Part shown: piece after piece, positions 12,344-38,116 of the stretch
Numbering within the stretch: the first letter of the stretch is position 1
How the letters are laid out: each line of letters starts with the position of its first letter
Assembly (NCBI GenBank): GCA_964507195.1
Contig: CAZDPA010000001.1
Coordinates: 19,648 to 83,647, forward strand
Reading direction: 5' to 3'
Source of the DNA: an uncultured Salinisphaerales bacterium
GTDB taxonomy: Bacteria > Pseudomonadota > Gammaproteobacteria > Nevskiales > Nevskiaceae
DNA: 64,000 bases
The notes under the pieces: generated by a model
Told to the model about the DNA's origin: nothing
Databases searched by the model: none
What the model saw: the letters and a program-made list of their open reading frames with translations, nothing else
Made by a program: the position numbers and the translations under genes

Positions 12344-12365
12344 ACAAGTAATATATATTAATTGT
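12344..12365. promoter_or_regulatory. Operator copy A (ACAAGTA-N8-TAATTGT) embedded in a promoter facing the TBDR gene
   Basis: TTGACAAGTAATATATATTAATTGTATGTT: a TTGACA -35 hexamer, an 18-nt spacer, then a TATGTT -10-like hexamer. Same 7-8-7 architecture as sites B-E. Confidence 0.55.
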
Positions 12366-12408
12366 ATGTTTCAAGGCACACCCACTGCTGACACCTTACG
12401 AGACGCAA

Positions 12409-14883
12409 ATGCGATTGAAGTACCGGACCCTAATTGCGCTCATCGGACTCTCGATGCCGTTGCTATGCGTAGACGTCGTGGCTCAGGAAGCTCACGAGCC
12501 GGATGTGGTCATCGGCGAATCCGTTGAGGCGACGTCAGAATCTCCACCTGAGGAGTTCTGGGCTGCAGGTGAGGAGCATGCATCGCCAAGTACGCCACCA
12601 AATGACTCCTCGGCGAACTCAGCAAATGCGACAGACCCTGTTTCTGAAGGAGAGATCGTTCCAACGATTCCGGTTCTGTCGGCCGCGAAAATCTCTGAGC
12701 CGGAGATGGCTGCGCCATCGCGCAGCACGGTTCTTGAAGAGATCGTAGTCACTGCAGATAAGCGCCAGCAGAGCGTGCGCGATATTGCCGGCTCGGTTAC
12801 CGGTATCAACGGAAAGCAAATGGAAGAAGCGGGGGCTTCGGGTCTAGGGGAATACTTGTCGCTTTCGCCAGGCGTCAACTTTTCCAGCAGCGTTCCCGGG
12901 CAATCGCTGATCACCATTCGCGGCATTTCGTCGGACACAGTTCCCGGGTTCACGCAGACAACGGTAGGTGTTTATTACGACGACATCCCGCTGACCGACC
13001 CCTCGGCACCTATTGTTGTGCCAGATATCGACGCCTTTGACGCGGATCGTGTGGAGGTCCTTCGAGGACCTCAAGGCGCCTTGTACGGCTCGGCGTCTAT
13101 GGGTGGCGCGATGAACTACGTGCCCAATCAGCCCAATTTCTCCGACTACGAGTTTTCGGTAATGGGCACCGGAAACATCATGGAGAACAGCTCTGTAGGT
13201 GGCTCTTTCAAAATGATGGTCAACACGCCTTTCTTCCAGGACTCAGAGATATTCGATGATGGTCTGGCCTTGCGTGTTGCCGGCCACATCACCCACCAGC
13301 CTGGCTATATCGACAACCTGGGCCTGGATCGGCCCCAGTCAAATGAGACTACAACCGGTGGTGGGCGCGCGATGGTGAGCTGGGCGCCTACCGGAAATTC
13401 GGTTTTGCGCTTGGGCGGTCTCTACCAGCGAACGTTTGTCCCTGATCAGGGGTACACACTTGATACGTTGGACGATCTACAGAAGTCATCCATCATGCCG
13501 GAAGAAACATTCAACCAGTTCTGGCTTTCCAGCCTTCACTATGAAATTAGCGAGGATTACGGAACCTGGTCGTTGATAGGCGGGTATCAGGAAAAGGACA
13601 GCCTGGTCAGCTTCGATGCTTCGTCAGGATTGGGCTTAGATCAGACTGGGCTGCAGATTCCCCTCGTCCAGGGCGGAAGTGTTCAGGGCTACAGCGCAGA
13701 ACTGCGATTCGTCTCGCCGCTGGACGACACATTCTATTGGCTTGCCGGCATCTCATATGTCGATCGCAAGGAACTCTTCTACGATAGCCTCACTCCGGAG
13801 CTCACCTCCACCACAGTGGCGATCGCGACGAACCTCCTCGGAGCGTTGGGCATTCCGGTGCCGGCTGATATTGAGGCTGTCGGAACGTTGTTCTCCCAAA
13901 CTGCGAATGTCAAAGCGCCGGAGAAGGCTGCATACCTAGAGGGAACGTTTGCCTTTCTTGATCGATTCAAGCTGACAGCAGGCGGCAGGTTCTACGACAA
14001 CATGGTTGAGAGCAGCACCGTTTCAAGCGGTGTACTAATGCTCCCAACTGGATCGCTCAGCGCTACTGCTTACGACAAGCAAGTCGGGCAAGGATTCAAC
14101 CCTAAGGTCTCGATCTCTATGGAAGTGACGGATGACGTTATGGTCTACGCGCTCTACTCCCGTGGTTATCGACTGGGTGGAGTCAACCTATCGCCGGTGA
14201 CGCCGCTGACCAATGCATCGCAGTTCTACTCTGCGGACGAAGTTCGCAATTTCGAACTAGGCGCAAAGACGCGCTGGTTCTCTGGCGCCATGACAGCAGA
14301 CGTTACCGCTTATCGAATTGATTGGAAGGACATTCCTCTGCTGATTCAAGATAGCGCCGGTTTGTTCAACTACCTAGAAAACGCAGGTAATGCGAAAGTT
14401 GATGGCGTAGAAGCAGCATTGGCAATTATGCCTTTCGACTTTCTTACCGCCCGATCATCAGTGACATACAACGATGCTCGGCTACTGAATGACTTCGATC
14501 CCGACAATGGGCAGCCGCCTGCCATGGCAGGAGATCAACTTCCTGGGGCGCCGAAGCTAACGGTGACCAATCTCCTGTCCGGCGTCTGGTACGTAGGGAA
14601 TAGCATTCCCAGCGTGACCTTGATTCACCGCTATGTCGGTGAGTCCCCCTCCAATTTGTCCTTCAAGGACATTCCCGTCGGCGGATACCATTTATTCGAT
14701 CTGCGTGCGGGCACAAAGCTGAATGGCTGGAGTATCACTGCGTTCGTGAAGAATATCGGCGACGAACGTGCAATCACTGCCTCCAAGAACCAACCGCGGC
14801 CTAACGGCGACATCGTCTCTGCCCGGTACATCATTCCGCCTCGGTCGATCGGACTTGAGTTTGGCTATACCTATGGCCAATAG
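12409..14883 (+). CDS. TonB-dependent receptor
   Basis: Signal peptide MRLKYRTLIALIGLSMPLLCVDVVAQE. Plug motifs LEEIVVTADKRQQSVRDIAGSV and RVEVLRGPQGALYGSASMGG. 824 aa, beta-barrel-type C-terminus. Confidence 0.9.
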   Translation: MRLKYRTLIALIGLSMPLLCVDVVAQEAHEPDVVIGESVEATSESPPEEFWAAGEEHASPSTPPNDSSANSANATDPVSEGEIVPTIPVLSAAKISEPEMAAPSRSTVLEEIVVTADKRQQSVRDIAGSVTGINGKQMEEAGASGLGEYLSLSPGVNFSSSVPGQSLITIRGISSDTVPGFTQTTVGVYYDDIPLTDPSAPIVVPDIDAFDADRVEVLRGPQGALYGSASMGGAMNYVPNQPNFSDYEFSVMGTGNIMENSSVGGSFKMMVNTPFFQDSEIFDDGLALRVAGHITHQPGYIDNLGLDRPQSNETTTGGGRAMVSWAPTGNSVLRLGGLYQRTFVPDQGYTLDTLDDLQKSSIMPEETFNQFWLSSLHYEISEDYGTWSLIGGYQEKDSLVSFDASSGLGLDQTGLQIPLVQGGSVQGYSAELRFVSPLDDTFYWLAGISYVDRKELFYDSLTPELTSTTVAIATNLLGALGIPVPADIEAVGTLFSQTANVKAPEKAAYLEGTFAFLDRFKLTAGGRFYDNMVESSTVSSGVLMLPTGSLSATAYDKQVGQGFNPKVSISMEVTDDVMVYALYSRGYRLGGVNLSPVTPLTNASQFYSADEVRNFELGAKTRWFSGAMTADVTAYRIDWKDIPLLIQDSAGLFNYLENAGNAKVDGVEAALAIMPFDFLTARSSVTYNDARLLNDFDPDNGQPPAMAGDQLPGAPKLTVTNLLSGVWYVGNSIPSVTLIHRYVGESPSNLSFKDIPVGGYHLFDLRAGTKLNGWSITAFVKNIGDERAITASKNQPRPNGDIVSARYIIPPRSIGLEFGYTYGQ

Positions 14884-14962
14884 AGCTACCGTCTGGTGGC
14901 GTAGCTAAGTACGGGATATCAACGATCGAAAGATTTAAAACAATAACAAACGTGGTGCAACC

Positions 14963-16306
14963 TTGAAGCCCGATATTGAAGCGAATGAAATTCACCCGCG
15001 GGCTTGGCGTAGCACATGGCTACTGATGTTCGCAATGATCCTGTGCACCTTGGATCGAACATTGCCGAGCGTTCTGGCTGATCCCATTCGAGTCAGTCTG
15101 GGAATGTCTGATACGCAGCTGTCGCTGATTGTCGGGTTGGCGTTCGCGTCATGCTATGCAATCTTTGCGCTGCCGATGGGGTGGATGGCGGATCGTGGTC
15201 ACCGGCCTCGGGTGATTGCAGCGGGTATCGTAGTGTGGAGCTTGGCGACGGCCGGCTGCGGCTACGCCACTGGCTTCAACAGCATGTTCTCTCTCCGGAT
15301 GGGTGTTGGTATAGGCGAGGCCGCGCTCGTACCCGCCGCTATCTCATTGCTTGCCGACCTGATACCCAGGGCAACGTTGCCTCGAGCTATGGGTTTGTTC
15401 AACTCGGGCGGACTGTTCGGCATTGGTATGGCATATGCGGCGGGTCCCGCCTTGTCGCAGGCCCTGGAAGGATTTGTCGATGAAGCCACGATATGGTTCC
15501 CCGCAGACGGGTGGCGACTGACTTTCATCGTCGTCGGCGCCGTCGGATTGCTTTTTGCGGCACTGATCTTGAGGCTTCCCGAACCGAGAAAGGACCTAGG
15601 GGTCGTCGCCACTTCTCAGCCCAAGGCTCGTGAACCGCTCATGCCATACCTGAAGCGGTCATCGTCTTTCACGATTCCCTTGCTCGTCAGCCTCGTGCTT
15701 TTGAATCTGTATGCGGTCGGCTATTTGACGTGGCAGACCCCGTATTTCACCAGGACACACGGATGGGAGTTGGCGGAGGTTGGGAAGTGGCTCGGCATAT
15801 CTGTGCTGGGCGCCGGCATTACGGGGTCGCTTCTTGGAGGGTGGATCACATCGGTAATCACACGGAAGACAGGTCGTGATTCTGCAATGCTCGTGTCTGG
15901 TATTGCGGTGGCGTTGCTCGCACCTCTGGCGGTACTGACCCCGCTCTCGCCCAATGGGGAGATCGCTATGTCTCTACTCGCCATGCAGCTCACTTTGGCT
16001 TTTTCGGCAAGCGCAACCTTGCCCACGGTATTGGTCAATACATCACCTCCGCACCTGAGAGCGCGCTTCTTCGCGACGAATCTCTTCTTCGGAAATCTCT
16101 TCGGAGCCGGTGTTGGGCCAACGATATTCGCGCTGATCACGGACTACGTGCTACGCGACGAAAGTAAGCTCTACCTGTCCCTGTCGATCGGTGCGGCGGT
16201 CATATTTGTTCCCGTGCTAATCCTGCTTTGGCGCACCGCTCATCAGTATCAGTCGGCCCTGATTCGGGCGGAACCGGCATCAGCCGCGCTTGGCGCACAA
16301 ATCTGA
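14963..16306 (+). CDS. MFS transporter
   Basis: 447 aa with about 12 predicted TM helices. MFS loop motif GWMADRGHRPRV. The track start is a TTG, so the exact start is uncertain. Confidence 0.8.
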   Translation: MKPDIEANEIHPRAWRSTWLLMFAMILCTLDRTLPSVLADPIRVSLGMSDTQLSLIVGLAFASCYAIFALPMGWMADRGHRPRVIAAGIVVWSLATAGCGYATGFNSMFSLRMGVGIGEAALVPAAISLLADLIPRATLPRAMGLFNSGGLFGIGMAYAAGPALSQALEGFVDEATIWFPADGWRLTFIVVGAVGLLFAALILRLPEPRKDLGVVATSQPKAREPLMPYLKRSSSFTIPLLVSLVLLNLYAVGYLTWQTPYFTRTHGWELAEVGKWLGISVLGAGITGSLLGGWITSVITRKTGRDSAMLVSGIAVALLAPLAVLTPLSPNGEIAMSLLAMQLTLAFSASATLPTVLVNTSPPHLRARFFATNLFFGNLFGAGVGPTIFALITDYVLRDESKLYLSLSIGAAVIFVPVLILLWRTAHQYQSALIRAEPASAALGAQI

Positions 16307-16451
16307 AATGCCCCAATCTGGAAGACCATCGGCAGCAGCTAAGCGTTAGCTCGAGTGCCGTTTCGGACAAGAAATATGTATTGTTTGTATTGTATGATGA
16401 GGAAATATCTGGGCGTCATGTGATCAATAACTCGGTAAAGGGGTAGGTGAG

Positions 16452-17153
16452 ATGGCTCGGTCCGCTGTGAGCGCAAAGAGCAAGAGTGTCCGCGGGGCGG
16501 CGACAAAAAAAGTGCCCGTGCGTCGCACGAATGCAGAGCGAAGCGAGTCAACTCGGGAGCGAGTGATCGCAGCAGCTGTCCATGTGCTCTATACCCGCGG
16601 CTATTCCGGTGCCACGACCTTGGCAATCCAGGAAGCTGCAGGGATAAGCCTTGGGGCAATGCAGCACCAGTTCCCCACAAAAGCGAAGTTAATGGCGGCC
16701 GTTGCGGAAAGGTTCGGAGAGCATCGTTATCGGTGCTATGAAGAAGCCGCGCAGACTGCCACCGATCCGCTTGATTGCGTCAAGCGAATGCTTGATGTGG
16801 CTGGCGCGATCATTCGAGATCCCGAGTTCGTCTCAGGATTGGAGATTCTCCTGGCTAAGAGAAACGATCCTGAGTTGGAGCAAGAGCTCCAGCCGCTCAT
16901 GAAGCGCTACGAAGATCAGATGAATCGCATCCTGGACAAGATCGTCAAGGAGGCCGGTATCGATGATGCTGTTTGGAATAGCAGGACCCGAGTGCTCAGC
17001 AATGCTGTGACGCGTGGGCTGGCAGTCGAGCTTCTCAACGGCGGAGACCGGGCGACGGTCATCGGCGCTTACGCGCTTTGGCGAGAAATGATCCTGGAAC
17101 TGTTTACCCGCGAGATGAACACTTCCCGCCGTGGGGCGCGCTCGAAGGGGTAA
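16452..17153 (+). CDS. TetR family transcriptional regulator (only regulator inside the 12-40 kb catabolic block)
   Basis: HTH region STRERVIAAAVHVLYTRGYSGATTLAIQEAAGISLGAMQHQFPTKAKLMAAV. Confidence 0.85.
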   Translation: MARSAVSAKSKSVRGAATKKVPVRRTNAERSESTRERVIAAAVHVLYTRGYSGATTLAIQEAAGISLGAMQHQFPTKAKLMAAVAERFGEHRYRCYEEAAQTATDPLDCVKRMLDVAGAIIRDPEFVSGLEILLAKRNDPELEQELQPLMKRYEDQMNRILDKIVKEAGIDDAVWNSRTRVLSNAVTRGLAVELLNGGDRATVIGAYALWREMILELFTREMNTSRRGARSKG

Positions 17154-18181: not shown

Positions 18182-18203
18182 ACAAGTAGAATATATTACT
18201 TGT
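18182..18203. promoter_or_regulatory. Operator copy B (ACAAGTA-N8-TACTTGT) embedded in a promoter facing ilvE
   Basis: TTGACAAGTAGAATATATTACTTGTATATAC: -35 TTGACA, 18-nt spacer, -10-like TATATA. The half-sites form a perfect inverted repeat. Confidence 0.6.
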
Positions 18204-18439: not shown

Positions 18440-19360
18440 ATGAGTTTCGCCAATCGCGACGGATACATCTGGTACGACGGGGAGCTGGTGCCTTGGCGTG
18501 AGGCGACGACTCACGTCCTAACTAGCACCCTGCACTATGGCGCCGGGGTATTTGAAGGGATCCGCGCATATGCCACGCCAAAGGGTACTGCTGCCTTCCG
18601 GCTCGAAGATCATACGAAGCGGTTGTTCAATTCTGCCAAGATCCTGGGTCTGGATATTCCGTATAGCCAGCAGCAGATCAATGCTGCTTGCCTCGATGTA
18701 TTGCGCCGGAACAATCTGACTGAAGCCTACATTCGGCCGATGGCATTCCTCGGTCCAGAAAGCGTCGGTTTGCGCGCGGCGGATCTAAAGGTGCATGTCA
18801 TGGTCGCTGCCTGGACCTGGGGCGCGTACTTGGGTGCAGAGAATGCCGAGCGCGGCATTCGCGTGAAGACCAGTTCCTTCTCGAGACATCACGTCAATGC
18901 GGCAATGTGCCGAGCCAAAGCGAACGCCAATTACTTGAACTCGATGCTGGCACTTAACGAAGCCTTGAAAGATGGTTACGAAGAGGCCGTCATGCTGGAC
19001 TCTCAGGGATATATAGCCGAGGGCTCTGCTGAGAACATCTTTCTAGTGCAGGACGGCGTTCTGCATACTCCAGACATCACGTCCGCGTTGGATGGCATCA
19101 CCCGCCGCTCTGTTATGCGGCTGGCGCATGATGCCGGTATCAAGGTAGTCGAGCGCCGACTGACCCGTGATGAGCTGTACATTTCCGACGAAGCCTTCTT
19201 CACCGGGACTGCAGCCGAAGTTGTCCCGATTCGTGAAGCTGACAATCGAGTCATAGGAGCCGGAAATCGTGGGCCTGTCACTGCATTGCTGCAGAAGGGG
19301 TACTCCGATTTGGTGAAGGGGCATAGCAGTGCATACAGCCACTGGCTAACAGTGCTTTAA
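18440..19360 (+). CDS. ilvE: Branched-chain amino acid aminotransferase (short, class IV type)
   Basis: 306 aa; YIWYDGELVPWREATTHVLTSTLHYGAGVFEGIRAY and the EGSAENIF motif are typical of the E. coli-type IlvE family. Confidence 0.9.
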   Translation: MSFANRDGYIWYDGELVPWREATTHVLTSTLHYGAGVFEGIRAYATPKGTAAFRLEDHTKRLFNSAKILGLDIPYSQQQINAACLDVLRRNNLTEAYIRPMAFLGPESVGLRAADLKVHVMVAAWTWGAYLGAENAERGIRVKTSSFSRHHVNAAMCRAKANANYLNSMLALNEALKDGYEEAVMLDSQGYIAEGSAENIFLVQDGVLHTPDITSALDGITRRSVMRLAHDAGIKVVERRLTRDELYISDEAFFTGTAAEVVPIREADNRVIGAGNRGPVTALLQKGYSDLVKGHSSAYSHWLTVL

Positions 19361-19382
19361 GTCTGTGGCAGAGCAGGCTTCT

Positions 19383-20006
19383 ATGAAACTCTGGCACTGT
19401 CAGGATTCACGCTCCATTCGCCCGCTTTGGACTCTGGAGGAACTGGATATTCCCTATGAGCTGGAGCTGATGCCGTTCCCGCCGCGGTCACTGCACAAGG
19501 GATTCTTGGACGTGAACATACTAGGAACGGTGCCGTACTTTACGGATGGCCAGGTCCGCATGACGGAGTCATCAGGGATCTGCCTCTATCTGGTCGAAAA
19601 GTACGGTCGGCGCGATCTGGGCCTAGACCCAAGTCATCCTGAGTATGGCGACTATCTGAACTGGCTTTTCCACAGCGACGCGACGCTTACATTCCCGCAG
19701 ACCATCTACCTTCGTTACACGCGCCTCGAGCCTGAGGAAAGGCGCTTGCCGCAAGCGGCGCAAGACTATCGAAAGTGGTACTTGGCCCGCCTGCGCCTTC
19801 TCAATGCACATATATCGGAGCGAGAGTACCTATGCGCCGATCGGTTCACGATTGCAGACATCGCCATTGGCTTTGCACTCTATCTCGGCGAACTCCTCAA
19901 GATCAGCGGGGACTATCCGACAGCTGTACAGACCTACCTTGCCCGCCTGAAGCAGCGACCGTCTTTCCAGCGGTGCATAGCTCTTGGCGGTGAGTCAGTG
20001 TTCTAA
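19383..20006 (+). CDS. Glutathione S-transferase family protein
   Basis: MKLWHCQDSRSIRPLWTLEELDIPYEL gives a thioredoxin-like N-domain, followed by a helical C-domain. The ATG at 19383 is preferred over the GTG at 19365. Confidence 0.8.
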   Translation: MKLWHCQDSRSIRPLWTLEELDIPYELELMPFPPRSLHKGFLDVNILGTVPYFTDGQVRMTESSGICLYLVEKYGRRDLGLDPSHPEYGDYLNWLFHSDATLTFPQTIYLRYTRLEPEERRLPQAAQDYRKWYLARLRLLNAHISEREYLCADRFTIADIAIGFALYLGELLKISGDYPTAVQTYLARLKQRPSFQRCIALGGESVF

Positions 20007-20856: not shown

Positions 20857-20987
20857 TCGTCTGTCTTCCATTGAAGGTAATTCAGCAGTGGATTTCGAAT
20901 GTCACTGCCTTTTTATCGATTGGGAGCGGTCTTAACAGATAGCAATGTAGCGAGGACCCGTCGCCTGGATCGGCAAATTTATGTTTG

Positions 20988-24536: not shown

Positions 24537-24548
24537 GATCGGTCGCGT

Positions 24549-25697: not shown

Positions 25698-25755
25698 TGA
25701 ATGCTCGCTCGATAAGGTCGGATGGGGTATGGCGGTCAAAATGGGCGCGTACGGA

Positions 25756-27564: not shown

Positions 27565-29552
27565 GTTGCAGATTCTTCGATCACGATCAGTACGGCTCCG
27601 CTGCCAATCTGATCTCCCTTTTGGACGCGGACTTCACTGACCACCCCGGCGCCTGGAGCAACGATGCTGTGCTCCATCTTCATCGCCTCCATAATCGCGA
27701 GCAGTTGTCCGGCGACGACCTTCTGGCCAACCACAACTTCTACGGCAATGACCTTGCCGGGCATCGGCGCGCTGAGCCCGCCGGCCACATCCTCGATTTC
27801 GGTGCCGTCCTTGAAGCGCGGGATCAAGGTCAACGCGATATCTCCGCGCGGACCGTGCATCCACCACTGGCGACCATGGCAGTGCACGGTGGTGCGCTCT
27901 TGTCTGCCGTCAATCTCGAAGATGAGCGCATGACCATCGATGGACATCACGCGCGCGATCGATGTCCGATCGAGAACGTTGAACTCAAAGGTGCCGTCCC
28001 GTTGACTGCGGTACTCGGTAAGTACCTCTTGCTCTCCGTAGCTGAACTTCAAACGCTGCGGAGGCAGGCGCCCGATACGAAAACCACTCGGCAGAGATGT
28101 AAGAACTCGGGCCTCGGAACGATTGTTTTTCTGAGAGAACAGTGCGGCTGCGATAGCGGCTTGACGCAACGCCGCAGCATCCGCGGTGCGCCCACGAGGC
28201 GGATTAACGTCAGCGATGAAAGACGTTGTGGTGTCGCCGGCCAGAAAGCGTGGATGACGCAGCGTCGCCACCAGGAAATCACGGTTGGTGGTCACGCCTT
28301 GAATGCGCATTCGCTCTAGAACCAGAGCCAGACTGAGCGCGGCTTCACTGCGTGTTTGTCCATGCACGATGATCTTTGCCATCATCGGATCGAATTCGAC
28401 ACCGATTCTGCTGCCCCGCTCGACGCCACTGTCGTAGCGAGCTGGCGGGCTGGGCGGCAGCTCCCAGGCCAGCAATTCGCCGATAGCGGGCAGAAAGTCG
28501 TTCTGGGGGTCTTCAGCATAAATGCGCGCTTCAACGGCATGGCCCGTGATCGTCAGGCTCTCCTGCGTGAAGGACAGGGGCTCGCCTTGCGCGACTCGAA
28601 TCTGTTCGCGAACCAGATCGATGCCGGTGATTGCCTCTGTCACCGGGTGTTCAACCTGCAAGCGCGTGTTGATCTCAAGGAAGAAGAACTCGCCGTTCTT
28701 GTCGAGCAGAAACTCGACCGTCCCAGCGTTGTCGTAAGCGATCGCCCTGACCGCCTTGACCGCGGCCTCACCCATTTTCTTGCGCAGCGACGCATCAACC
28801 GCAGAAGACGGCGCTTCTTCGATGACTTTCTGATGGCGGCGCTGAATGGAGCACTCTCGCTCAAAGCAGTAGACCAGGCTGCCGTGCTTATCGCCGATCA
28901 CCTGGATTTCGACATGCCGCGCGCCTTCGACATACCGCTCGAGGAAAACGGTCGGATCCCCGAAAGCCGAGCCCGCCTCACGCCTGGCTCCAGCAACCGC
29001 CGCCGCCAGCTCGGACTTTTCGCGCACGATGCGCATGCCCTTGCCACCACCGCCGGCCGCCGCCTTGACGAGAGCGGGGAAGCCGACCTTGTCGGCCGCC
29101 GTATCGAGATCCGAGTGCTCATCGAGCTCAACCGAGTGAAGCACGGGGACCGAGATCGTCTGCATCAGGTTTTTGGCGGCAAGCTTGTCGCCCATGGCTG
29201 CAATCGCATCCGGTGGCGGGCCCACCCAAACCAAGCCGGCTTCAATCACTGCTTTGGCGAAATGCGCACGCTCGGAAAGAAAGCCGTAGCCAGGATGAAT
29301 CGCGTCCGCGCCTGCCGCCTTGGCAGCAGCGAGCACCTTCGCAACATCGAGATAGGTTTCGCCGGCCGTTCGACCGTTGAGCGACCATGCCTCGTCTGCA
29401 TCGCGCACGAACGGCTCGTTGGCATCGCCGTCGGCGTAAACAGCGACGGTCTGAATTCCCATCGTTGCGGCAGTGCGCATGACGCGACGTGCGATTTCGC
29501 CACGGTTGGCGATCAGTAGTCTTCGGATAGTGCGGGTTTCGATCGTGCTCAT
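27561..29552 (-). CDS. Acyl-CoA carboxylase alpha subunit (biotin carboxylase plus biotin carrier; methylcrotonyl/geranyl-CoA carboxylase type)
   Basis: 663 aa; ATP-grasp biotin carboxylase N-terminus (LLIANRGEIARRVMRTA) and a C-terminal biotinyl motif EAMKMEH. Confidence 0.92.
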   Translation of the reverse strand: MSTIETRTIRRLLIANRGEIARRVMRTAATMGIQTVAVYADGDANEPFVRDADEAWSLNGRTAGETYLDVAKVLAAAKAAGADAIHPGYGFLSERAHFAKAVIEAGLVWVGPPPDAIAAMGDKLAAKNLMQTISVPVLHSVELDEHSDLDTAADKVGFPALVKAAAGGGGKGMRIVREKSELAAAVAGARREAGSAFGDPTVFLERYVEGARHVEIQVIGDKHGSLVYCFERECSIQRRHQKVIEEAPSSAVDASLRKKMGEAAVKAVRAIAYDNAGTVEFLLDKNGEFFFLEINTRLQVEHPVTEAITGIDLVREQIRVAQGEPLSFTQESLTITGHAVEARIYAEDPQNDFLPAIGELLAWELPPSPPARYDSGVERGSRIGVEFDPMMAKIIVHGQTRSEAALSLALVLERMRIQGVTTNRDFLVATLRHPRFLAGDTTTSFIADVNPPRGRTADAAALRQAAIAAALFSQKNNRSEARVLTSLPSGFRIGRLPPQRLKFSYGEQEVLTEYRSQRDGTFEFNVLDRTSIARVMSIDGHALIFEIDGRQERTTVHCHGRQWWMHGPRGDIALTLIPRFKDGTEIEDVAGGLSAPMPGKVIAVEVVVGQKVVAGQLLAIMEAMKMEHSIVAPGAGVVSEVRVQKGDQIGSGAVLIVIEESAT

Positions 29553-29556
29553 GGTC

Positions 29557-31191
29557 TTAGAACCGGAATACGCCGTAGTTGTCAGTGCCTTTCACCGGAG
29601 CTGAGTGGCAAGCTGACAGCGCCATACCCAACGCATCGCGCGTGTCGCGCGGATCGATGATGCCGTCGTCTTTCATGCGTCCAGTCGCATACTTGGCGAG
29701 CGAGGTGTACTCCTGGAATGCCTCGGTATCCGCCACGATCTTGGCCTCTGCGGTCTCGTCTATGGGTGTCCCGGCCCGCTGCGCCTGACCACGACGAACG
29801 ATCGACATCACACCGGCAATCTGCTTCGGTCCCATCACGGCGATCTTCGCGGTCGGCCAGAGGAACAGGAACCGGGTGTCGAAGCTGCGACCGCTCATGC
29901 CGTAATTGCCGGCCCCGTAGCTGGCGCCAATGACTACTGAGATGTGCGGTACCGTGGAGTTCGATACCGCATTGATCATCTGGCTGCCCTTCTTGACGAT
30001 CCCGGCTTCCTCGTACTGCTTGCCGACCATGTAGCCCGTGATGTTGTGCAGGTACAGCAGCGGGATATTCCGGGCGTTGCATAGCGAGATGAACTGCGTG
30101 GACTTCTCCGCCGTTTCCGGGAAGATCGGGCCGTTGTTGCCGAGGATGCCCACCCCGAATCCGTGAATGTGCGCCCACCCGCAGACCATCGTCGGGCTGT
30201 AGACCGGCTTGAACTCTTCGAACTCACTTCCGTCGACAATGCGCGCAATCACCTCGCGGATATCGATCGCGGCCTTCAAGTCCTTCGGCACGATCCCCAG
30301 CAGTTCGTCGTTGTCGTATATCGGCGCCTTGACCGGCTGAGTCGGCCCATAGCCCGCCTTGTTCCAGTTAAGGTGCTTGATGACGTCGCGTGCCATGCCG
30401 AGACCTTCTGTCTCGTTTTCTGCGAGGTAATCGCAGAGGCCACTCTTGGTGGCGTGCATGGTGGCCCCGCCGAGTTCCTCGGCGTTGGCGACCTCTCCGG
30501 TTGCAACCTTCAACAGCGGCGGGCCCGCTAGAAACACCTGAGCGGCGCCCTTGATGAAGATGTTGTACTCGGAGAGACCCGGCATATAGGCGCCGCCGGC
30601 CGTCGAGCTGCCGCAGACCACCGAAACCGTCGGGATGCCGAGCTTCGACAGTTCGGTGATGGCGTAGAAGATATTCCCGGATTCTCCGAAATGACTGAGC
30701 TCAGCCTTGAGGAGGTAGTCCGGGTCGATGCCTTCAGCTCCGCGTCGCAGATCTCCGCCAGAGGACTCAATGATTTGTACGTACGGCAGCCGGTTCTGGC
30801 GCGCGACCTTGAGGCTGTGCAGGATCTTTGCCATGGACATTGGAGTCATGGCGCCGCCCATATCCGTTGGGTCGTTGGCAAAGATCACGCATTCGGTACC
30901 TGCGATGACGCCGATACCCAGGAGTGAACCCGCGCCGTCCTTGTAGTGCGTGAGATGCCCGGCCAACGGGCTGATTTCCATGAACGGGCTGTCTGCGTCC
31001 AGCAGCAGCGCGACGCGCTCGCGCATCGTCAGCTTCCCCGCGGCGGTATGCCGTGCGATGGCCTTCTCACCGCCTCCAAGTGCGGCCTTGTCGGTTAGCG
31101 CATTGACATCAGCAAGCATGTCGAGCATGTCAGCGCGATTCTGTCGGTAAGACGCAGAACGAACGTCCAGACGTGATGCCAGTATCGGCAT
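29557..31191 (-). CDS. Acyl-CoA carboxylase carboxyltransferase (beta) subunit
   Basis: 544 aa. The carboxyl-transferase family pattern runs throughout (GGGEKAIARHTAAGKLTMRERV; GSSTAGGAYMPGLS; GASYGAGNYGM). Confidence 0.92.
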   Translation of the reverse strand: MPILASRLDVRSASYRQNRADMLDMLADVNALTDKAALGGGEKAIARHTAAGKLTMRERVALLLDADSPFMEISPLAGHLTHYKDGAGSLLGIGVIAGTECVIFANDPTDMGGAMTPMSMAKILHSLKVARQNRLPYVQIIESSGGDLRRGAEGIDPDYLLKAELSHFGESGNIFYAITELSKLGIPTVSVVCGSSTAGGAYMPGLSEYNIFIKGAAQVFLAGPPLLKVATGEVANAEELGGATMHATKSGLCDYLAENETEGLGMARDVIKHLNWNKAGYGPTQPVKAPIYDNDELLGIVPKDLKAAIDIREVIARIVDGSEFEEFKPVYSPTMVCGWAHIHGFGVGILGNNGPIFPETAEKSTQFISLCNARNIPLLYLHNITGYMVGKQYEEAGIVKKGSQMINAVSNSTVPHISVVIGASYGAGNYGMSGRSFDTRFLFLWPTAKIAVMGPKQIAGVMSIVRRGQAQRAGTPIDETAEAKIVADTEAFQEYTSLAKYATGRMKDDGIIDPRDTRDALGMALSACHSAPVKGTDNYGVFRF

Positions 31192-31255
31192 GGTGCTTTA
31201 CCTTTCGAAGGATGGAAGAGGGTGAGGACAGCGCCCGAAGGGGTATGGCCGCGGA

Positions 31256-32389
31256 TCAGTTCAAAGCCTCAGGCATCGAGTGAATCCCAGGGCGGCGTCT
31301 GAAAAGCCTGTAGAGCCCGACCGTGACCAGCGGGACAATGAAAGTGGCGAAGACAGCGATTGCCAGTAGCCGGTACCCGCTGGCGATCAGTGCGACGAGA
31401 CCGAAGCGGGTTGCGAGGAACATGCAAAGCGCCAATACGGCAAGAGAAATTGCTACGCGCCATTGCAGCGTCAGTTCGCCTGACACGACGGACGCCACTC
31501 TCTGATTGAGCGAGTGGATGATGCCTGTGCTGCTTTCCAGCAGTGCCGAAAGGATCATCACCTGGAACAAGGTGTGGAAGACGGGATGCCCGAGCTTCGA
31601 AAGGAGATTGTCTGAGGGCAGTTCGCTGTCTTGGAGCTCCGGGAAACTCGCCATGCAAATGAAGAACAGGATTGCAGGTGCCATGGCCAATGGGCCCGCT
31701 AACAAGCCGGCAACAACCGCGTCCCTGTCGCTGCGCATATGCCTGATGACGGGCAAGATGAGTACGGCGCCCATCAGGTTGTAGCTCGCATATGAAAGCC
31801 CGCCCATAGCCCAGCCAGAAACAATATCTGACTGTGAAAATCGCTCGGCGATGCGATCTCCAAAGCTGGTGAATGCCAGAACAAAAAAGAGGAGGTAGAC
31901 GCCGTACAGCAGGAACGAAACGTATTTGAAAAGGGCCTCGACTGATGCGTCGCCGAACGCGACAAATGCCGTGACTGACACCAGCAGTCCAATCGTTCCG
32001 ACGATATGTGGCCAGCCAAACACGGTGTTGGCGATTGCCCCCGAAGCGGCGCCGAAGGCCGCCAGAGCAATGATTGCGCAAAGTAGAAAGGCACCTTCGA
32101 ACGCAAACCAGAAAGGGCCGAGAAGTTGCTTGAAGAAGTCTCGGTAGTTGAAGCTCTGAGTAACACGTCCGAAGAGGAAAGTCAGAGCACAAATCAGGCT
32201 CCACACGGACGCGGCGAGAAGCATTGCGAAGAGCCCACCCCATGCGCCACCCGGCATGAAGAACTCTGCAAGCTCCCGCCCAGTGGCGTACCCGCCGCCA
32301 ATCACCATCGCCTTGAATGCCAAGCCTGGCAGCAGCAACCTGCGGAACCAGTCGCTTCCTGCGGGAGTAGATAACGCGGTTGTCGACAC
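31256..32389 (-). CDS. Polytopic membrane transporter-like protein (YkvI-like)
   Basis: 377 aa with about 11 TM helices. The N-terminal GGGYATGRELAEFF motif resembles the YkvI-type membrane protein family. First gene of the operon. Confidence 0.55.
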   Translation of the reverse strand: MSTTALSTPAGSDWFRRLLLPGLAFKAMVIGGGYATGRELAEFFMPGGAWGGLFAMLLAASVWSLICALTFLFGRVTQSFNYRDFFKQLLGPFWFAFEGAFLLCAIIALAAFGAASGAIANTVFGWPHIVGTIGLLVSVTAFVAFGDASVEALFKYVSFLLYGVYLLFFVLAFTSFGDRIAERFSQSDIVSGWAMGGLSYASYNLMGAVLILPVIRHMRSDRDAVVAGLLAGPLAMAPAILFFICMASFPELQDSELPSDNLLSKLGHPVFHTLFQVMILSALLESSTGIIHSLNQRVASVVSGELTLQWRVAISLAVLALCMFLATRFGLVALIASGYRLLAIAVFATFIVPLVTVGLYRLFRRRPGIHSMPEALN

Positions 32390-32575: not shown

Positions 32576-32597
32576 ACAAGTAGTATTGATTACTTGT
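32576..32597. promoter_or_regulatory. Operator copy C (ACAAGTA-N8-TACTTGT), promoter facing the reverse-strand operon
   Basis: The reverse complement reads TTTACAAGTAATCAATACTACTTGTATTCT: a -35-like TTTACA, an 18-nt spacer and a -10-like TATTCT. Perfect inverted half-sites. Confidence 0.6.
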
Positions 32598-32667
32598 AAA
32601 GTTTGGAGCACACGTTGAAAATGTGTATCGCGCAAATGTCTGCCAGCGGTTGCGCCACATTCCATGT

Positions 32668-32689
32668 ACAAATAAGGTAACCTACTTGT
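32668..32689. promoter_or_regulatory. Operator copy D (ACAAATA-N8-TACTTGT), promoter facing the amidase gene
   Basis: TGTACAAATAAGGTAACCTACTTGTATATG; same architecture, with one substitution in the left half-site. Confidence 0.55.
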
Positions 32690-32868: not shown

Positions 32869-34287
32869 ATGAGGCTAGACGAATACGCACACTACGACGC
32901 CATCGGATTGATGGAACTCGTACGCAGGGGAAGCGTTACTGCCGCAGAACTCCAAAGGTGCGCGTTGGACGCGATTGAGCGTCTTAACCCGGCTCTCAAT
33001 TTCATGGCAGGAGCGGCCACAACGAATCCGACGTGGACCGCTGACAGGCCGTTTTCTGGGCTTCCGTTCCTGCTGAAGGAAGGGCATGGGTTGGCGGGGG
33101 GCTCGCTCTCGATGGGATCACGGCTCACTGCCGGACTGAAATCACCTCAGGACAGTGAACTGACGACTCGCTTCAAGAACGCCGGCGTCGCCATTCTCGG
33201 AGAAACAACTGCATCCGAGTTCGGGATTGCTCCCGTTACGACCTCCAGCCTGTACGGCATCACGCGCAATCCCTGGAACCTCGAGCATTCCCCTGGTGGA
33301 TCAAGCGGCGGTTCTTCGGTCGCCGTGGCAGCGGGTGTTGTACCCGTGGCACAAACGGCCGATGGTGGGGGCTCAATTCGCATCCCGGCTCATTGCACGG
33401 GAATTTACGGGCTCAAACCAAGTCGCGGCCGTACGCCTGATCTGAAGCCAGGCGTTTTCCCGTTGAGCCACTTTCATGTGTCGTCGAGAACTGTGAGGGA
33501 CTCTGCGGCATTCCTGGACGCAACGATGGGTGAATGGCCGGGAGCAGCCAGCCGCATTCAAAAGCCAGATCGGCCCTATCTTGAGGAAATTACCCGCCCT
33601 CCTAGCAGCTTGAAGATCGCAGTTTCGAGAAATGCTCCTGGCGGCGCAGTGGTCGCGCCTGAGTGCCTCGAAGCACTGGACCGTGCGGCGCGACTGGCTG
33701 AGTCGCTCGGCCATCGTGTAGAAGAAGCGGAGCCGAAGCTCGATTGGAATTCGCTGTTCCAGTCATTCATCACTGCCTGGTTCCACGCATTCCCGGTCGG
33801 TGTAAAGCAGATCAGCGCGATGACGGGGCGCAAACCGGGTCCAGATACCCTCGACGCTGGAACCCTGAGTGGGATCGAGCGCGGCAAGGCCCTGACCGTT
33901 GACGACATTGTGATTGCCAATGTCCACTTTCGAGCCGCGCACCAACTTTTGGATCAGTTCTTCATGAAGTACGACGTGTGGATGACACCAGCGGCGGTTT
34001 GTCAGGCGCCCTCCGTCAAGCAGTTCGATCCACGGATTCCAGAAGAGCAATCTGCTTCGGGCATCCCGAAACCGCTCCTTGAGTTCGCAGCATTCTCGCC
34101 TTTGCTCAACATTACCGGTCATCCGGCGGCGTCAGTGCCTCTGCATCAAGGTGCCAATGGCTTGCCTGCTGGCGTGCAGATCGTCGGCAAAACCGGTGAT
34201 GACGCGACCGTACTACGTCTTTCCGCTCAGTTCGAAACTGCCGATCCGTGGATCCAAAGGCGCCCCCCGCATTCTGTATTTTTTTGA
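32869..34287 (+). CDS. Amidase (amidase-signature family)
   Basis: GGSSGGSSVAVAAGVVPVAQTADGGGSIRIPA is the canonical AS-family Gly/Ser-rich signature. 472 aa. Confidence 0.92.
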   Translation: MRLDEYAHYDAIGLMELVRRGSVTAAELQRCALDAIERLNPALNFMAGAATTNPTWTADRPFSGLPFLLKEGHGLAGGSLSMGSRLTAGLKSPQDSELTTRFKNAGVAILGETTASEFGIAPVTTSSLYGITRNPWNLEHSPGGSSGGSSVAVAAGVVPVAQTADGGGSIRIPAHCTGIYGLKPSRGRTPDLKPGVFPLSHFHVSSRTVRDSAAFLDATMGEWPGAASRIQKPDRPYLEEITRPPSSLKIAVSRNAPGGAVVAPECLEALDRAARLAESLGHRVEEAEPKLDWNSLFQSFITAWFHAFPVGVKQISAMTGRKPGPDTLDAGTLSGIERGKALTVDDIVIANVHFRAAHQLLDQFFMKYDVWMTPAAVCQAPSVKQFDPRIPEEQSASGIPKPLLEFAAFSPLLNITGHPAASVPLHQGANGLPAGVQIVGKTGDDATVLRLSAQFETADPWIQRRPPHSVFF

Positions 34288-34365: not shown

Positions 34366-35271
34366 CTACAGCGACGTAGCTTGTAGGCCGGAGATGTATT
34401 CGATTAAGGCGATTGTGGTCGCGGATGCCCCGCGGCGCGTCATCACAAGGCCGCCATGGGTATGCGGCAAAGAGATCCACTGACTGCCCTTTCCGCCCCG
34501 ACCGGCGGTGACCTTATGCTGAGCCTGCATGAGACTGAGAACAGCTTGCGGGCGCCCTGAAGGCAGAATCAACTTAACAAGCCCGGTCAGCTCCTCCGAC
34601 TTATCCGCGCTAATGACCAGGCGAGGTGTTGGCGACGACCGCGCACACACGTCACGGATGCTCGGTAGCAACTCCATTTCGACAATTGCCGCACGTAACG
34701 ATGCTGCATTTGAGAGGGCGTTACGCGCCAATTGTCGTGCATCCGCTGGTGGAAGCTCAGGCGCCCTGCCTGCAATGGCCGCAACTGGGAATCCCAGGGT
34801 CGCCAGCACGACCATCAGTCGAGCGACGATGCGGAATGCGCCTCCTGTCCCATCAAGCAATGGATCGGGTCTTTCAGCTGTCGGATCAATCTGAACAACG
34901 GCGCGTATGCGCTGCGGTATCGACGCCGCATGCACTCCGCATATGAGTCCGCCATATGACTGGCCTGCGATCACGACAGGCTCGGCTATACCGAGATTAT
35001 CCAGCAGTGCTGCGAGATGCCGGCTCATGCCCTCTGCGCTTTGCGGCTCGTGCGCCTTACTGCCGCCGATGCCTGCACGATTGTAAAGAAGAACCCGCGT
35101 GTGCGGTGCGAGTTCATTTTGCAGCAACGCAAAATAGTCGTAGGACCCGCTCCATCCATTCTCCAAAACGACAAGCGGCAGACGACTTGGTGTGCCGGTC
35201 AGTCGATAACGTAGAGAAGCGCCAGGAATCTCTGCAACACCTTCGCGAAACTCACTCGATGGGGTAGTCAC
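34366..35271 (-). CDS. Alpha/beta hydrolase
   Basis: Nucleophile elbow GQSYGG. The proposed start is the GTG at 35271-35269, which overlaps the pepA stop (GTGA). The ORF-track ATG at 35400 would overlap pepA by about 130 nt. Confidence 0.75.
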   Translation of the reverse strand: MTTPSSEFREGVAEIPGASLRYRLTGTPSRLPLVVLENGWSGSYDYFALLQNELAPHTRVLLYNRAGIGGSKAHEPQSAEGMSRHLAALLDNLGIAEPVVIAGQSYGGLICGVHAASIPQRIRAVVQIDPTAERPDPLLDGTGGAFRIVARLMVVLATLGFPVAAIAGRAPELPPADARQLARNALSNAASLRAAIVEMELLPSIRDVCARSSPTPRLVISADKSEELTGLVKLILPSGRPQAVLSLMQAQHKVTAGRGGKGSQWISLPHTHGGLVMTRRGASATTIALIEYISGLQATSL

Positions 35272-36746
35272 TGCGGAGTTTTGGAAAGTCTGTTTACAAA
35301 AGCATCGATAAGACGAACGCCGAATCCAGTTGGGCCTTTCTGCACGCCGGACAGCGGGCGGGTCGCCCATGCAACACCGGCAATGTCCAGATGGGCCCAC
35401 GGTGTATCACCCGAGAATCTCTGGAGAAACTTAGCGCCAGATACCGCAGAGCCGGATCCGACGCCAAGGAATCCAGGAGCTCCGACGTTACGGACGTCCG
35501 CGATTTCTGACTCCACCAAGTAGTCTTGTCTCTTATCAAGCGGGAGACGCCACAGGAACTCCCCGCTCTCAGATCCCGCGGACTCCAGTTCGCGAGCAAG
35601 TCGATCGTCCGTACTAAATAGCCCGGCAAACTCTTCATGGAGTGTCGCCATCATTGCGCCCGTCAGTGTCGCGACATCGATGAGGCGCTGAGGCTTGTAC
35701 GTCTTCAACAGGTACGCCATCGCGTCGGCCAAGACAATTCTGCCCTCGGCGTCAGTGTTGTCCACTTCAATCGTGAGTCCTGCCAGTGATCTGATCACGT
35801 CGCCAGGGCGATACGATGTGCCGTCCACAACATTTTCGCATAGAGGAATGGCAGCGACGACATTCACGGGTGCACGCCGCTGAGCCATTGCGCGCATGGC
35901 ACCCACGACTGCGGCACCGCCCGCCATGTCGAACTTCATCTTGCTGATCGCCGGGGGTACCTTGAGGTTGAGGCCGCCCGCGTCAAATGTCAGCCCTTTC
36001 CCTACCAATCCGAGGTCGAATGACTTGGCCACACGTCCTTTCCACTGGCAGATCAACATGCAGGGTGGATGCTCGCTGCTGCGGCCTATGGCAAGCAAGC
36101 CGCCGGCGCCGATCTTTTCGAGCGCCTTCTGATCGAGAACCTTAATATCTAGCCCAACACTCACAAGCTCCTTCGCCGCACTAACGAATGCCTGCGGTGT
36201 CATCACATTCGCTGGCGCCTCTACCAGAGCACGTGACCAATTTACTGCTTCGGCCAGCTGTCGGGCGTGAGCGGTTCCCTTCCAAAAGGAGGCCGGGATC
36301 TCCAGCGCTTTTATGCTGAAATGGGACGCTGGCTGCTTTGAGCGAAAGGCCGTACACCGGTATGACGCCAAGGTGGCACCGATCGCAAAATGATTCATGG
36401 CCAACTGCGTGCCGATCGCCTGCGGTGCAGGCGGAGCAATCAATGCGGCCGATTCGACCCGCAGAGTGCGCATCGAGTCCATAACCGCAGCCCCGGCGGA
36501 TTCCCAGAATCGCTCCTCTCTTTCGAAGTCTGCCGGCCGCCCGCAACCGACAAGAATGATCCGTCGGCTATCGACGATGCAATCAACACGGTCTCCGACA
36601 GCACCTCTGAAGCTGGCCGGATGAGAGGGAATGGCGCAGTCGACCATCAAAGGTTGAAGATCCGCGCCGATCAAAAGCACCTCGGCAGCCGGCTTCTTTT
36701 TTGAGCGAGAGAATAGGGGGGATACGGTAGCGTCTTGCAAATGCAT
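35268..36746 (-). CDS. pepA: Leucyl aminopeptidase (M17 family)
   Basis: NTDAEGRIVLADA and GKGLTFDAGGLNLK motifs of M17 aminopeptidases. 492 aa. Confidence 0.92.
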   Translation of the reverse strand: MHLQDATVSPLFSRSKKKPAAEVLLIGADLQPLMVDCAIPSHPASFRGAVGDRVDCIVDSRRIILVGCGRPADFEREERFWESAGAAVMDSMRTLRVESAALIAPPAPQAIGTQLAMNHFAIGATLASYRCTAFRSKQPASHFSIKALEIPASFWKGTAHARQLAEAVNWSRALVEAPANVMTPQAFVSAAKELVSVGLDIKVLDQKALEKIGAGGLLAIGRSSEHPPCMLICQWKGRVAKSFDLGLVGKGLTFDAGGLNLKVPPAISKMKFDMAGGAAVVGAMRAMAQRRAPVNVVAAIPLCENVVDGTSYRPGDVIRSLAGLTIEVDNTDAEGRIVLADAMAYLLKTYKPQRLIDVATLTGAMMATLHEEFAGLFSTDDRLARELESAGSESGEFLWRLPLDKRQDYLVESEIADVRNVGAPGFLGVGSGSAVSGAKFLQRFSGDTPWAHLDIAGVAWATRPLSGVQKGPTGFGVRLIDAFVNRLSKTPQ

Positions 36747-36871
36747 ATTCTGATGTCCCCGAATGGTTCCGATTAGAGTTCAGATCTCGGGCAATCCGGA
36801 AACGCCCGATAGTCGTTGGTGCGGCACTATCGGAGCATCGGGACGTGGCGCCGTTCGATTGTGTTAGATAT

Positions 36872-36893
36872 ACAAGTAAGTTACTCTACTTGT
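36872..36893. promoter_or_regulatory. Operator copy E (ACAAGTA-N8-TACTTGT), promoter facing pepA
   Basis: The reverse complement reads TTGACAAGTAGAGTAACTTACTTGTATATC. It closely matches site B outside the 8-nt centre, apart from the last base shown. Confidence 0.6.
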
Positions 36894-38066: not shown

Positions 38067-38116
38067 TGGAGCAAATCAATGATCTGCACCATCGGACTCG
38101 GAGGTGAGGAGAAGGC

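Follow-up and report, generated by a model that had tools for sequence, protein, structure and literature searches.

What regulates a set of genes that share one palindrome in their promoters? The case considered here is a 64-kb stretch of DNA from an uncultured Salinisphaerales bacterium (contig CAZDPA010000001.1, positions 19,648 to 83,647; hereafter the window, in which all positions are counted), where the inverted repeat ACAAGTA-N8-TACTTGT recurs around the gene of a TetR-family regulator, the proposed repressor (tetR, 16452..17153, plus strand, 233 amino acids). Several described systems resemble this one in part. LiuQ is a predicted TetR-family regulator of leucine/isovalerate degradation, reported in betaproteobacteria only, with a regulon of liuABCDE, aacS and liuQ (RegPrecise, PMC5343134), and LiuR, of the MerR family, regulates the breakdown of branched-chain amino acids in gammaproteobacteria and other proteobacteria (PMC5343134). 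BkaR (Rv2506) is a mycobacterial TetR repressor of the accD1-accA1-bkd leucine/keto-acid operon and reads the operator GTTA-N-T-N4-A-N-TAAC (PMC3920632). AtuR, the TetR repressor of acyclic terpene utilisation in Pseudomonas, reads the 24-bp operator TACAAACCAAGCGCTTGCTTGGTA (bioRxiv 10.1101/2025.09.24.678253). Rv0078, or EthR2, of M. tuberculosis (PDB 5wm9, 6c31) binds a 21-bp operator over divergent promoters as two dimers on opposite faces (PMC6016246). Finally, the CUT loci, defined for carbohydrates, combine a TonB receptor, an inner-membrane transporter, degradative enzymes and a regulator (PMC1790865).

We propose that ACAAG(T/C)A-N8-T(A/G)CTTGT very probably serves as operator for a small and hitherto undescribed TetR-type repressor subfamily, and that the member encoded at 16452-17153 controls a local regulon with it. 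Six operators would govern five or six transcription units, about 19 genes between 12.4 and 40.0 kb. The original prediction had already read the repeat as an operator embedded in promoter spacers, defining a regulon of the local TetR; the co-occurrence of motif and subfamily, the orthologous promoters and the negative controls described below all argue for that reading. The core of the locus shares with CUT loci the architecture of TonB receptor, major facilitator superfamily (MFS) transporter, hydrolases and local repressor. It differs from them in its enzymes, which are an amidase, M17 and (with relatives counted) M24 peptidases and alpha/beta hydrolases, in the amino-acid catabolism that follows downstream, and in a regulator family and operator specific to this system; the carbohydrate substrate of CUT loci is not indicated here, glycosidases occurring in the Burkholderia variant only. 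LiuR serves the same physiological role in many gammaproteobacteria but belongs to another protein family with another mode of action and another motif, and no MerR-type gene was found in the block.

How exceptional is the repeat? Five copies begin at 12344, 18182, 32576, 32668 and 36872, exactly where they had been reported, three of them without a mismatch and two with a single one. If up to two mismatches are tolerated, the window holds these five matches against 0.05 expected, and none of 100 dinucleotide shuffles reaches five. With three mismatches allowed there are six sites against 0.56 expected, the extra one being 16367-16388. A "degenerate look-alike" at 16367-16393 had been noted before: the site upstream of tetR does exist, and its true span is the shorter one. 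Besides these six, a symmetrised weight matrix picked out nothing in the window that scored 10 bits or more, and a broader matrix built from ten sites gave no match of at least 20 bits in mononucleotide shuffles of the window. Every site is intergenic and flanked by divergently oriented genes, as first described, once the long open reading frame 31269-32660, which would overlap sites C and D, is set aside. We regard that frame as spurious because third-position GC supports another frame, which encodes a YkvI-family protein (31256-32389). When 22 distinct sites are pooled, the logo reads ACAAG(T/C)A-R-N6-Y-T(A/G)CTTGT and carries about 28 bits; among its best conserved positions are the inner bases of the half-sites, AAG.A and T.CTT, which are mirror-symmetric and lie outside both promoter hexamers. 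Several near-identical short intergenic palindromes might also be left by a mobile or repetitive element, akin to repetitive extragenic palindromes or miniature inverted-repeat transposable elements, and have no regulatory role. We find this barely conceivable: the similarity among the copies ends beyond about 30 bp, they are AT-rich with no GC-rich stem, they keep a constant register to the promoter hexamers, they are conserved at orthologous promoters in other species, and an Rfam search of the window returned no RNA family match.

When each promoter is read in the direction of its nearest co-oriented gene, all five strong sites show an identical layout. The -35 hexamer (TTGACA at three sites, TTTACA and TGTACA at the others) has its last three bases in common with palindrome bases 1-3, a spacer of 18 nt follows, and the -10-like hexamer (TATGTT, TATATA, TATTCT, TATATG or TATATC) begins on the last T of the palindrome. 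The operator flanks themselves are asymmetric, and therefore the direction is defined. The promoter-embedded geometry of the original prediction holds at all five sites and recurs in relatives, the layout TTG-ACAAGCA-N8-TACTTGT-ATGTT being retained in Burkholderia and in two further related loci (L001 and L002). Operator A (12344..12365, plus strand; ACAAGTAATATATATTAATTGT) has its -35 TTGACA at 12341-12346 and its -10 TATGTT at 12365-12370, spacer 18 nt, in the TonB receptor-MFS promoter. Operator B (18182..18203, plus strand) is perfect, with a -35 TTGACA at 18179-18184 and a -10-like TATATA at 18203-18208 in the ilvE-glutathione S-transferase promoter. Operator C (32576..32597, minus strand), also perfect, lies in the promoter of a 12-kb operon with the -35 TTTACA at 32600-32595 and the -10 TATTCT at 32576-32571. 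Operator D (32668..32689, plus strand) has one mismatch and belongs to the amidase promoter (-35-like TGTACA 32665-32670, -10-like TATATG 32689-32694), and the perfect operator E (36872..36893, minus strand) belongs to the pepA-hydrolase promoter (-35 TTGACA 36896-36891, -10-like TATATC 36872-36867). The weak operator R (16367..16388, plus strand; ACAAGAAATATGTATTGTTTGT) has three mismatches and a degenerate local -35, and lies 64 nt 5' of the tetR start codon. A simple consensus promoter scan accepts A and C only; it rejects the other three strong sites because their -10 hexamers, TATATA, TATATG and TATATC, lack the final T.

An operator built in this way into a sigma-70-type promoter would, when bound, let the repressor fill the 18-nt spacer and exclude RNA polymerase. 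Could the repeat instead be no more than a strong promoter used in common (TTGACA, then an AT-rich spacer, then TATnnT), one whose symmetry is accidental and for which no dedicated repressor exists? The palindrome ends do coincide with the -35 and the -10, and the spacer is AT-rich. The conserved, mirror-symmetric inner bases AAG.A and T.CTT, however, fall in neither hexamer; Gluconobacter keeps the palindrome though the TTG of the -35 is missing; and the repeat co-occurs with one TetR subfamily while being absent from orthologous promoters where no TetR of the subfamily is present. We therefore judge a promoter without a repressor very improbable.

What is known of the putative reader? The protein encoded at 16452 matches Pfam TetR_N over residues 39-84 (E = 1.6e-9). 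Its AlphaFold2 model has nine helices, with a mean predicted local distance difference test score (pLDDT) of 86 and a predicted template-modelling score (pTM) of 0.77, and the best 50 Foldseek matches to this model in the PDB are all TetR-family proteins. With its helix-turn-helix domain, its all-helical, two-domain fold and the palindromes over the predicted target promoters, it has three features by which TetR-family regulators are recognized. The helix-turn-helix, GYSGAT...SLGAxQHQFPTKA, is near-invariant across the subfamily. Close relatives of the protein are few: in a set of 1.84 billion representatives the subfamily makes up 16 clusters (50% identity, E <= 1e-30). Homologs of 36-52% identity occur in Burkholderia, Gluconobacter, sphingomonads, Hyphomonas and Solimonas; the closer relatives are 78% (locus L064) and 72% (L065/L187) identical. 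The subfamily has not previously been described, and literature searches with the motif words and for a TetR/TonB/amidase system found no description of it; the repressor-operator switch is itself of a known type. A bile-salt lead from the literature was dropped.

The closest solved structure is about 25% identical, none nearer having been found. This is Rv0078, which matches the model with a Foldseek template-modelling (TM) score of 0.64-0.75 and is a plausible model for binding to a 22-bp site; it differs in its unrelated operator sequence and in its biology, a cytokinin-responsive single target gene. Because the half-site centres of the palindrome are 15 bp apart and Rv0078 binds its 21-bp operator as two dimers, binding of two dimers per operator seems the more likely arrangement by analogy.

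Does the motif travel with the regulator? In the first three homolog loci opened (L001, L002 and Burkholderia) there is exactly one palindrome each, at the TetR operon. In L001 it heads a TonB receptor-hydrolase-amidase-MFS-serine dehydratase-TetR operon, in L002 it lies between an amidase and a divergent esterase-TetR-TonB receptor unit, and in the Burkholderia locus it lies between TetR and GH5/GH1/sulfatase genes. Among 59 loci reached by a protein-guided scan with one genome per species, a palindrome with at most two mismatches stands 76-172 bp from the TetR gene in four of seven Burkholderia loci and 11 of 12 Gluconobacter loci, and the Gluconobacter palindrome precedes M24 peptidase-MFS-TonB receptor genes. 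A matrix survey covered 1.27 Mb of related loci. Because circularity was to be avoided, the matrix was restricted to the five sites of the window. It gave 27 matches of at least 18 bits, and all 27 lie at promoters of the TetR gene, of its operon or of orthologs of the window's target genes. In relatives whose TetR is 72-78% identical, the scan of orthologous loci that had been called for finds the motif conserved at the tetR, MFS, ilvE, amidase and pepA/ilvE2 promoters.

The motif follows the subfamily through beta-, gamma- and alphaproteobacteria, the surrounding genes being otherwise unrelated; relatives that carry it, in Burkholderia, Gluconobacter and uncultured gammaproteobacteria, are 36-78% identical to the protein of the window. 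TonB receptor and MFS gene types are linked to the TetR gene in five loci (L001, L002, L020, L052 and L187), and amidase genes accompany it in four of them (L001, L002, L020 and L187). A TonB receptor, an inner-membrane transporter, one or more degradative enzymes and the regulator are co-localised in the window as in those five loci. In all lineages the conserved core of the predicted regulon is composed of a TonB receptor, an MFS transporter and an amidase or peptidase, and it is here expanded to transaminases and a leucine/isovalerate-type operon.

These observations bear on who reads the site. The palindrome might be the operator of some other factor, encoded elsewhere in the genome or by one of the two other TetR genes of the window (5805-6545 and 58529-59254), with the gene at 16452 merely one of its targets. 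The tetR-upstream site is indeed the weakest of the six, and the assignment of the reader rests on sequence, with 64 kb of the genome in view. Against this, the TetR gene of the subfamily is the only gene that always stands beside the motif (Burkholderia, Gluconobacter, L001, L002, L064 and L187), while its neighbours differ completely, and loci that hold the target genes together with another TetR lack the motif. The two other TetR proteins of the window were considered as motif readers and rejected: they are 21-25% identical to the protein at 16452, their recognition helices are not the same as its own, and no site lies near their genes. The gene at 16452 is the sole regulator gene inside the block, as had been stated at the outset; the TetR at 5805, offered then as a second candidate, turns out to be unrelated and to lack a palindrome site. 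Reading by another factor is, in our estimate, quite improbable, and the subfamily TetR remains the preferred reader.

Conservation at orthologous promoters points the same way. The locus with the 78% identical regulator (L064) keeps the TetR-DUF6134-ilvE synteny. Upstream of its tetR stands a one-mismatch site with a TTGACA -35, and the site in front of its ilvE is perfect. Compared with this locus, operator B is conserved as a 33-nt footprint between diverged flanks, and operator R as a block in alignment A3. Because the orthologous site in L064 is strong, the weak tetR site of the window may be understood as a decayed copy of a real autoregulatory site, and autoregulation of tetR is likely. 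In L065 and L187 sites stand upstream of the MFS gene, orthologous to operator A, and upstream of tetR. The 12-kb contig L187 carries MFS, TetR, amidase, CN-hydrolase, quinone oxidoreductase, ilvE2, PepA, hydrolase and TonB receptor genes side by side. Its site upstream of the amidase scores 30 bits and shows as a footprint when aligned with operator D (alignment A4); operator E is conserved there as a footprint of about 40 nt. The orthologous operator lies between ilvE2 and pepA, 3 nt from the ilvE2 start codon, with the PepA-hydrolase pair and then the TonB receptor behind it. Throughout L064 and L065/L187 the conserved operators and their hexamers are islands of identity within diverged spacers. 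With regard to unit C, a copy of the motif in L190/L191 heads a hydrolase-amidase-MFS-leucine dehydrogenase-...-YkvI operon, which holds the ortholog of the first gene of that unit. Loci with target-gene orthologs and a different TetR provide the control: the motif was not found in L183, which has a 70% identical YkvI, an oxidoreductase and an acyl-CoA dehydrogenase, nor in the Solimonas loci L188 and L189, which have amidase orthologs with a TonB receptor and an MFS transporter. The predicted operator tracks the regulator rather than the target genes.

Several points weigh against the operator-repressor pair as we propose it. Binding and repression are deduced from the DNA and protein sequences throughout, and the specificity of the palindrome is judged within 64 kb of the genome only. 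The tetR-upstream site of the window is weak, with three mismatches and a poor -35; three of the five strong sites have -10 hexamers that lack the canonical final T; and a half-site separation of 15 bp is unlike that of a single canonical TetR dimer. For operator C, no directly orthologous promoter was found among the related sequences reached. A metagenome scan for the exact pattern TTGACAAGYA-N8-TRCTTGTA gave 115 stretches, 80 of them listed, and these are mostly unrelated: the TetR subfamily accompanies four of the 80 listed (three Burkholderia-like contigs and L064), and the remaining listed matches have spacers that are GC-rich or arbitrary and are without a TetR of the subfamily even at E <= 10. 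Because most metagenome matches are without the subfamily, the pattern is too short to serve as an independent probe. Finally, about 20 sphingomonad members with an identical recognition helix lack the 22-bp palindrome, and given these loci the rule that links protein to site would be only partly understood.

The sphingomonad loci were fitted to the 22-bp motif, did not fit, and are not counted as support. Instead, 22 sphingomonad and related loci (L015-L049; for example L020 6543-6570 and L015 6679-6703) share the element ATAAACAAGTTGACTTTATTGTAAA, in which GATGA follows TTGACT by about 17 nt and the dyad symmetry is weak. This element precedes a TonB receptor-TetR operon, with MFS-amidase(-acyl-CoA ligase) genes on the divergent side, and its best dyad is 18 bp (ACAA-N10-TTGT), not 22 bp. 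The same TetR family may read 18-bp and 22-bp versions of the site, with one or two dimers. Another sequence, TTGACAAGCAGCCATGGTTACTTGTA, is a recurrent match to the search pattern in soil contigs (L134 5941-5966 and at least ten other metagenome loci, among them L073, L081, L087, L095, L096, L113, L123, L132 and L140). Here the match extends across the ATG start codon of a conserved gene, with no TetR in the vicinity, and it was therefore rejected as an operator.

How, then, does the regulator relate to those of leucine catabolism? A kinship with described TetR-type regulators of this pathway had been suggested, and it could be that the regulator is the LiuQ ortholog and the motif the LiuQ box. 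Both proteins belong to the TetR family, both regulons are defined by comparative genomics, and the genes at the core of the LiuQ regulon have counterparts in unit C, namely those for methylcrotonyl-CoA-carboxylase-like subunits, an acyl-CoA dehydrogenase and a hydratase. But LiuQ is reported in betaproteobacteria only, with liuABCDE, aacS and liuQ as its regulon (PMC5343134), and it is encoded with the liu genes. The subfamily described here, set apart from LiuQ by the description of the latter, occurs at TonB/MFS/amidase loci in three proteobacterial classes. Its betaproteobacterial members and their motif sit at a GH5/GH1/sulfatase locus; its conserved partners are the TonB receptor, the MFS transporter and the amidase or peptidase; and in the window tetR comes after the genes of the TonB receptor and the MFS transporter, with 15 kb between it and the liu-like operon, in a regulon that adds transporters, an amidase, a peptidase and transaminases. 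Orthology with LiuQ, compared by its description, is unlikely. The suggested kinship finds no support, the partners of the regulator not being liu genes and the Burkholderia members lying at a glycosidase/sulfatase locus, nor, more generally, do we see support for linking the regulator with LiuQ, BkaR or AtuR.

BkaR is nonetheless a functional analogue: an autoregulated TetR repressor with palindromic operators at several promoters of leucine-catabolic carboxylase and dehydrogenase genes. It differs in the 16-bp core bound by one dimer and in a regulon without uptake or hydrolase genes. Membership in the BkaR group was rejected on its published operator, which differs from ACAAGYA-N8-TRCTTGT, and on a weak fold match (Foldseek of the model against BkaR 6yj2, TM 0.50-0.61 at 16% identity, below many other TetR proteins). 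Similarly, AtuR binds an inverted repeat over the -35 and the -10, in a cluster with AtuA, a biotin carboxylase pair, an acyl-CoA dehydrogenase and a hydratase. It differs in that atuR stands divergent beside atuA and responds to fatty and terpenoid acids, whereas the regulator of the window sits with transport genes; moreover, the carboxylase beta subunit of the window is nearer to methylcrotonyl-CoA carboxylase than to geranyl-CoA carboxylase. Membership in the AtuR group was rejected as well, the operator differing from TACAAACCAAGCGCTTGCTTGGTA and the atuA of the window standing fourth in operon C, well away from tetR.

Which genes would come under control? Genes were assigned by Pfam, NCBIfam and PDB sequence searches. 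Unit A (12409..16306, plus strand) comprises the TonB-dependent receptor (12409-14883) and the MFS transporter (14963-16306), and tetR may be read through from it. Unit B (18440..20006, plus strand) comprises a branched-chain aminotransferase of type I (18440-19360), which matches NF005146 at 443 bits against a cut-off of 279, and a glutathione S-transferase (19365-20006). Unit C is the 12-kb operon of seven tightly packed genes on the minus strand (20083..32389). It begins with the YkvI-family membrane protein (31256-32389), whose frame is favoured by third-position GC and which has thousands of homologs. There follow a methylcrotonyl-CoA-carboxylase-like beta subunit, the carboxyltransferase (29557-31191), its alpha subunit, the biotin carboxylase (27561-29552), AtuA (25756-27564), an acyl-CoA dehydrogenase (24549-25697), a fused, 1182-amino-acid protein of the indolepyruvate/2-oxoacid:ferredoxin oxidoreductase (IOR) family (20988-24536), and an enoyl-CoA hydratase (20083-20871). 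The carboxylase beta subunit scores 519 bits against that of P. aeruginosa methylcrotonyl-CoA carboxylase, its best match, and 459 against that of geranyl-CoA carboxylase. No gene for a branched-chain keto-acid dehydrogenase or a 3-hydroxy-3-methylglutaryl-CoA lyase was found among the genes of the 64-kb window. Unit C may be a non-canonical leucine/isovalerate route. We note that AtuA, with a ferredoxin-like domain, is encoded alongside the fused oxidoreductase, and that the closest PDB match of the acyl-CoA dehydrogenase is not an isovaleryl-CoA dehydrogenase.

Unit D is the amidase-signature amidase (32869..34287, plus strand), with its best named matches in Solimonas, Sinimarinibacterium and Nevskiales, which suggests, though not securely, that the bacterium is a relative of Nevskiales. 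Unit E (34366..36746, minus strand) comprises leucyl aminopeptidase PepA (35268-36746) and an alpha/beta hydrolase (34366-~35260; its open reading frame reaches 35400). Probable unit F (36966..39974, plus strand) comprises an aminotransferase of type II, ilvE2 (36966-38066), a quinone oxidoreductase-like protein, qor (38117-39097), and a CN-hydrolase (39159-39974). We infer its membership: no clear separate promoter was found when one was sought, and operator E is probably common to the pepA-hydrolase unit and this divergent unit. The original prediction had named ilvE2, qor and the CN-hydrolase as possible further members, and L187 speaks for them, since it groups these genes in a 12-kb cluster in which the operator abuts the start of ilvE2.

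We propose that this gene set forms a route from the cell exterior to central metabolism. A small peptide or amide would be taken up through the TonB-dependent receptor, the MFS transporter and the YkvI permease, and hydrolysed by the amidase, the leucyl aminopeptidase and the alpha/beta hydrolase. The two branched-chain aminotransferases would transaminate the products, and the keto acid would be oxidized by way of leucine/isovalerate-type acyl-CoA with the 2-oxoacid:ferredoxin oxidoreductase, the acyl-CoA dehydrogenase, the methylcrotonyl-CoA-type carboxylase and the hydratase, with AtuA in addition. The repressor probably damps its own gene through the weak sixth site. Its release would presumably depend on a small molecule, for which the imported substrate or a product of hydrolysis is the likeliest candidate. 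We infer, weakly, that the inducer is such a compound rather than an acyl-CoA, because the partners conserved across lineages are the uptake and hydrolysis genes and not the CoA enzymes.

More broadly, it is possible, though we put it forward tentatively, that the subfamily and its 30-bp unit TTG-ACAAGYA-N8-TRCTTGT-AT mark an uncharacterised class of proteobacterial outer-membrane-receptor loci for small peptides and amides. The regulated promoter would have been copied before four further units in this probably Nevskiales-related lineage, wiring in a non-canonical leucine pathway in which a fused ferredoxin-dependent oxidoreductase replaces the branched-chain keto-acid dehydrogenase and AtuA is added. 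The substrates could contain D-amino acids, given the dipeptide epimerase and D-aminopeptidase-like genes at sister loci. As a separate observation, two loci with YkvI or amidase orthologs and without the subfamily TetR (L185 6549-13144 and L188 2869-12430) encode a TonB receptor together with DUF1611, MR_MLE-type (dipeptide-epimerase-like), beta-lactamase-fold, M20 peptidase and S15 peptidase proteins, which hints that this group of uptake loci handles peptides with D-amino acids.

If correct, the proposal supplies a testable operator-repressor pair for a TetR subfamily without a characterised member, and about 19 genes of an uncultured bacterium are brought together in a single regulatory unit. 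It would also link TonB-dependent uptake of peptides or amides directly to leucine-type acyl-CoA catabolism, with the poorly understood AtuA, fused IOR-family oxidoreductase and YkvI among the genes so linked. Since cultivable carriers exist in the Burkholderia cepacia complex and in Gluconobacter, the prediction is easy to test. Furthermore, a 30-bp regulated promoter with standard -35 and -10 elements could serve as a portable switch once its inducer is identified. The switch itself is a conventional on/off device, and the general view of TetR regulation is unchanged by it.

A few further features of the window deserve mention. In the leader of about 185 nt between operator C and the YkvI start there is a 33-codon upstream open reading frame (32398-32496, minus strand) with a GGAGA ribosome-binding site; it is not leucine-rich. 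The amidase leader holds an insertion of about 76 nt relative to L187 (32741-32816), with a terminator-like hairpin at 32761-32782 followed by a T-run, and it is not conserved. The ilvE leader (18210-18440) is about 235 nt long with a GC-rich hairpin in the window and about 60 nt in L064. Both the amidase-leader hairpin and the long ilvE leader were set aside as parts of the mechanism, not being conserved in relatives, and the Rfam search of the window revealed no known riboswitch in the long leaders. The divergent partners are, at operator B, a DUF6134 gene (17283-18041, minus strand) and, at operator A, an HD-domain gene (11664-12248, minus strand).

Finally, the two remaining TetR genes of the window have surroundings of their own. 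The third TetR gene (58529-59254) comes after that of a TonB receptor (56008-58557) and before that of a cellulase of family GH5, which also has a GH5 C-terminal domain (59326-61281). TetR and GH5 are paired in this way in the Burkholderia loci too; the TetR itself is unrelated to the subfamily of 16452 (21-25% identity), and no palindrome was found in the 72-bp gap between it and the GH5 gene. The TetR gene at 5805-6545 (minus strand) is divergent from the gene of an 825-amino-acid protein with a RoxA-like (rubber-oxygenase-type) cytochrome c domain (6539-9016) and adjoins a TonB receptor (3220-5730), so that the region 3220-9016 resembles a utilisation locus in its own right, served by a regulator of its own.

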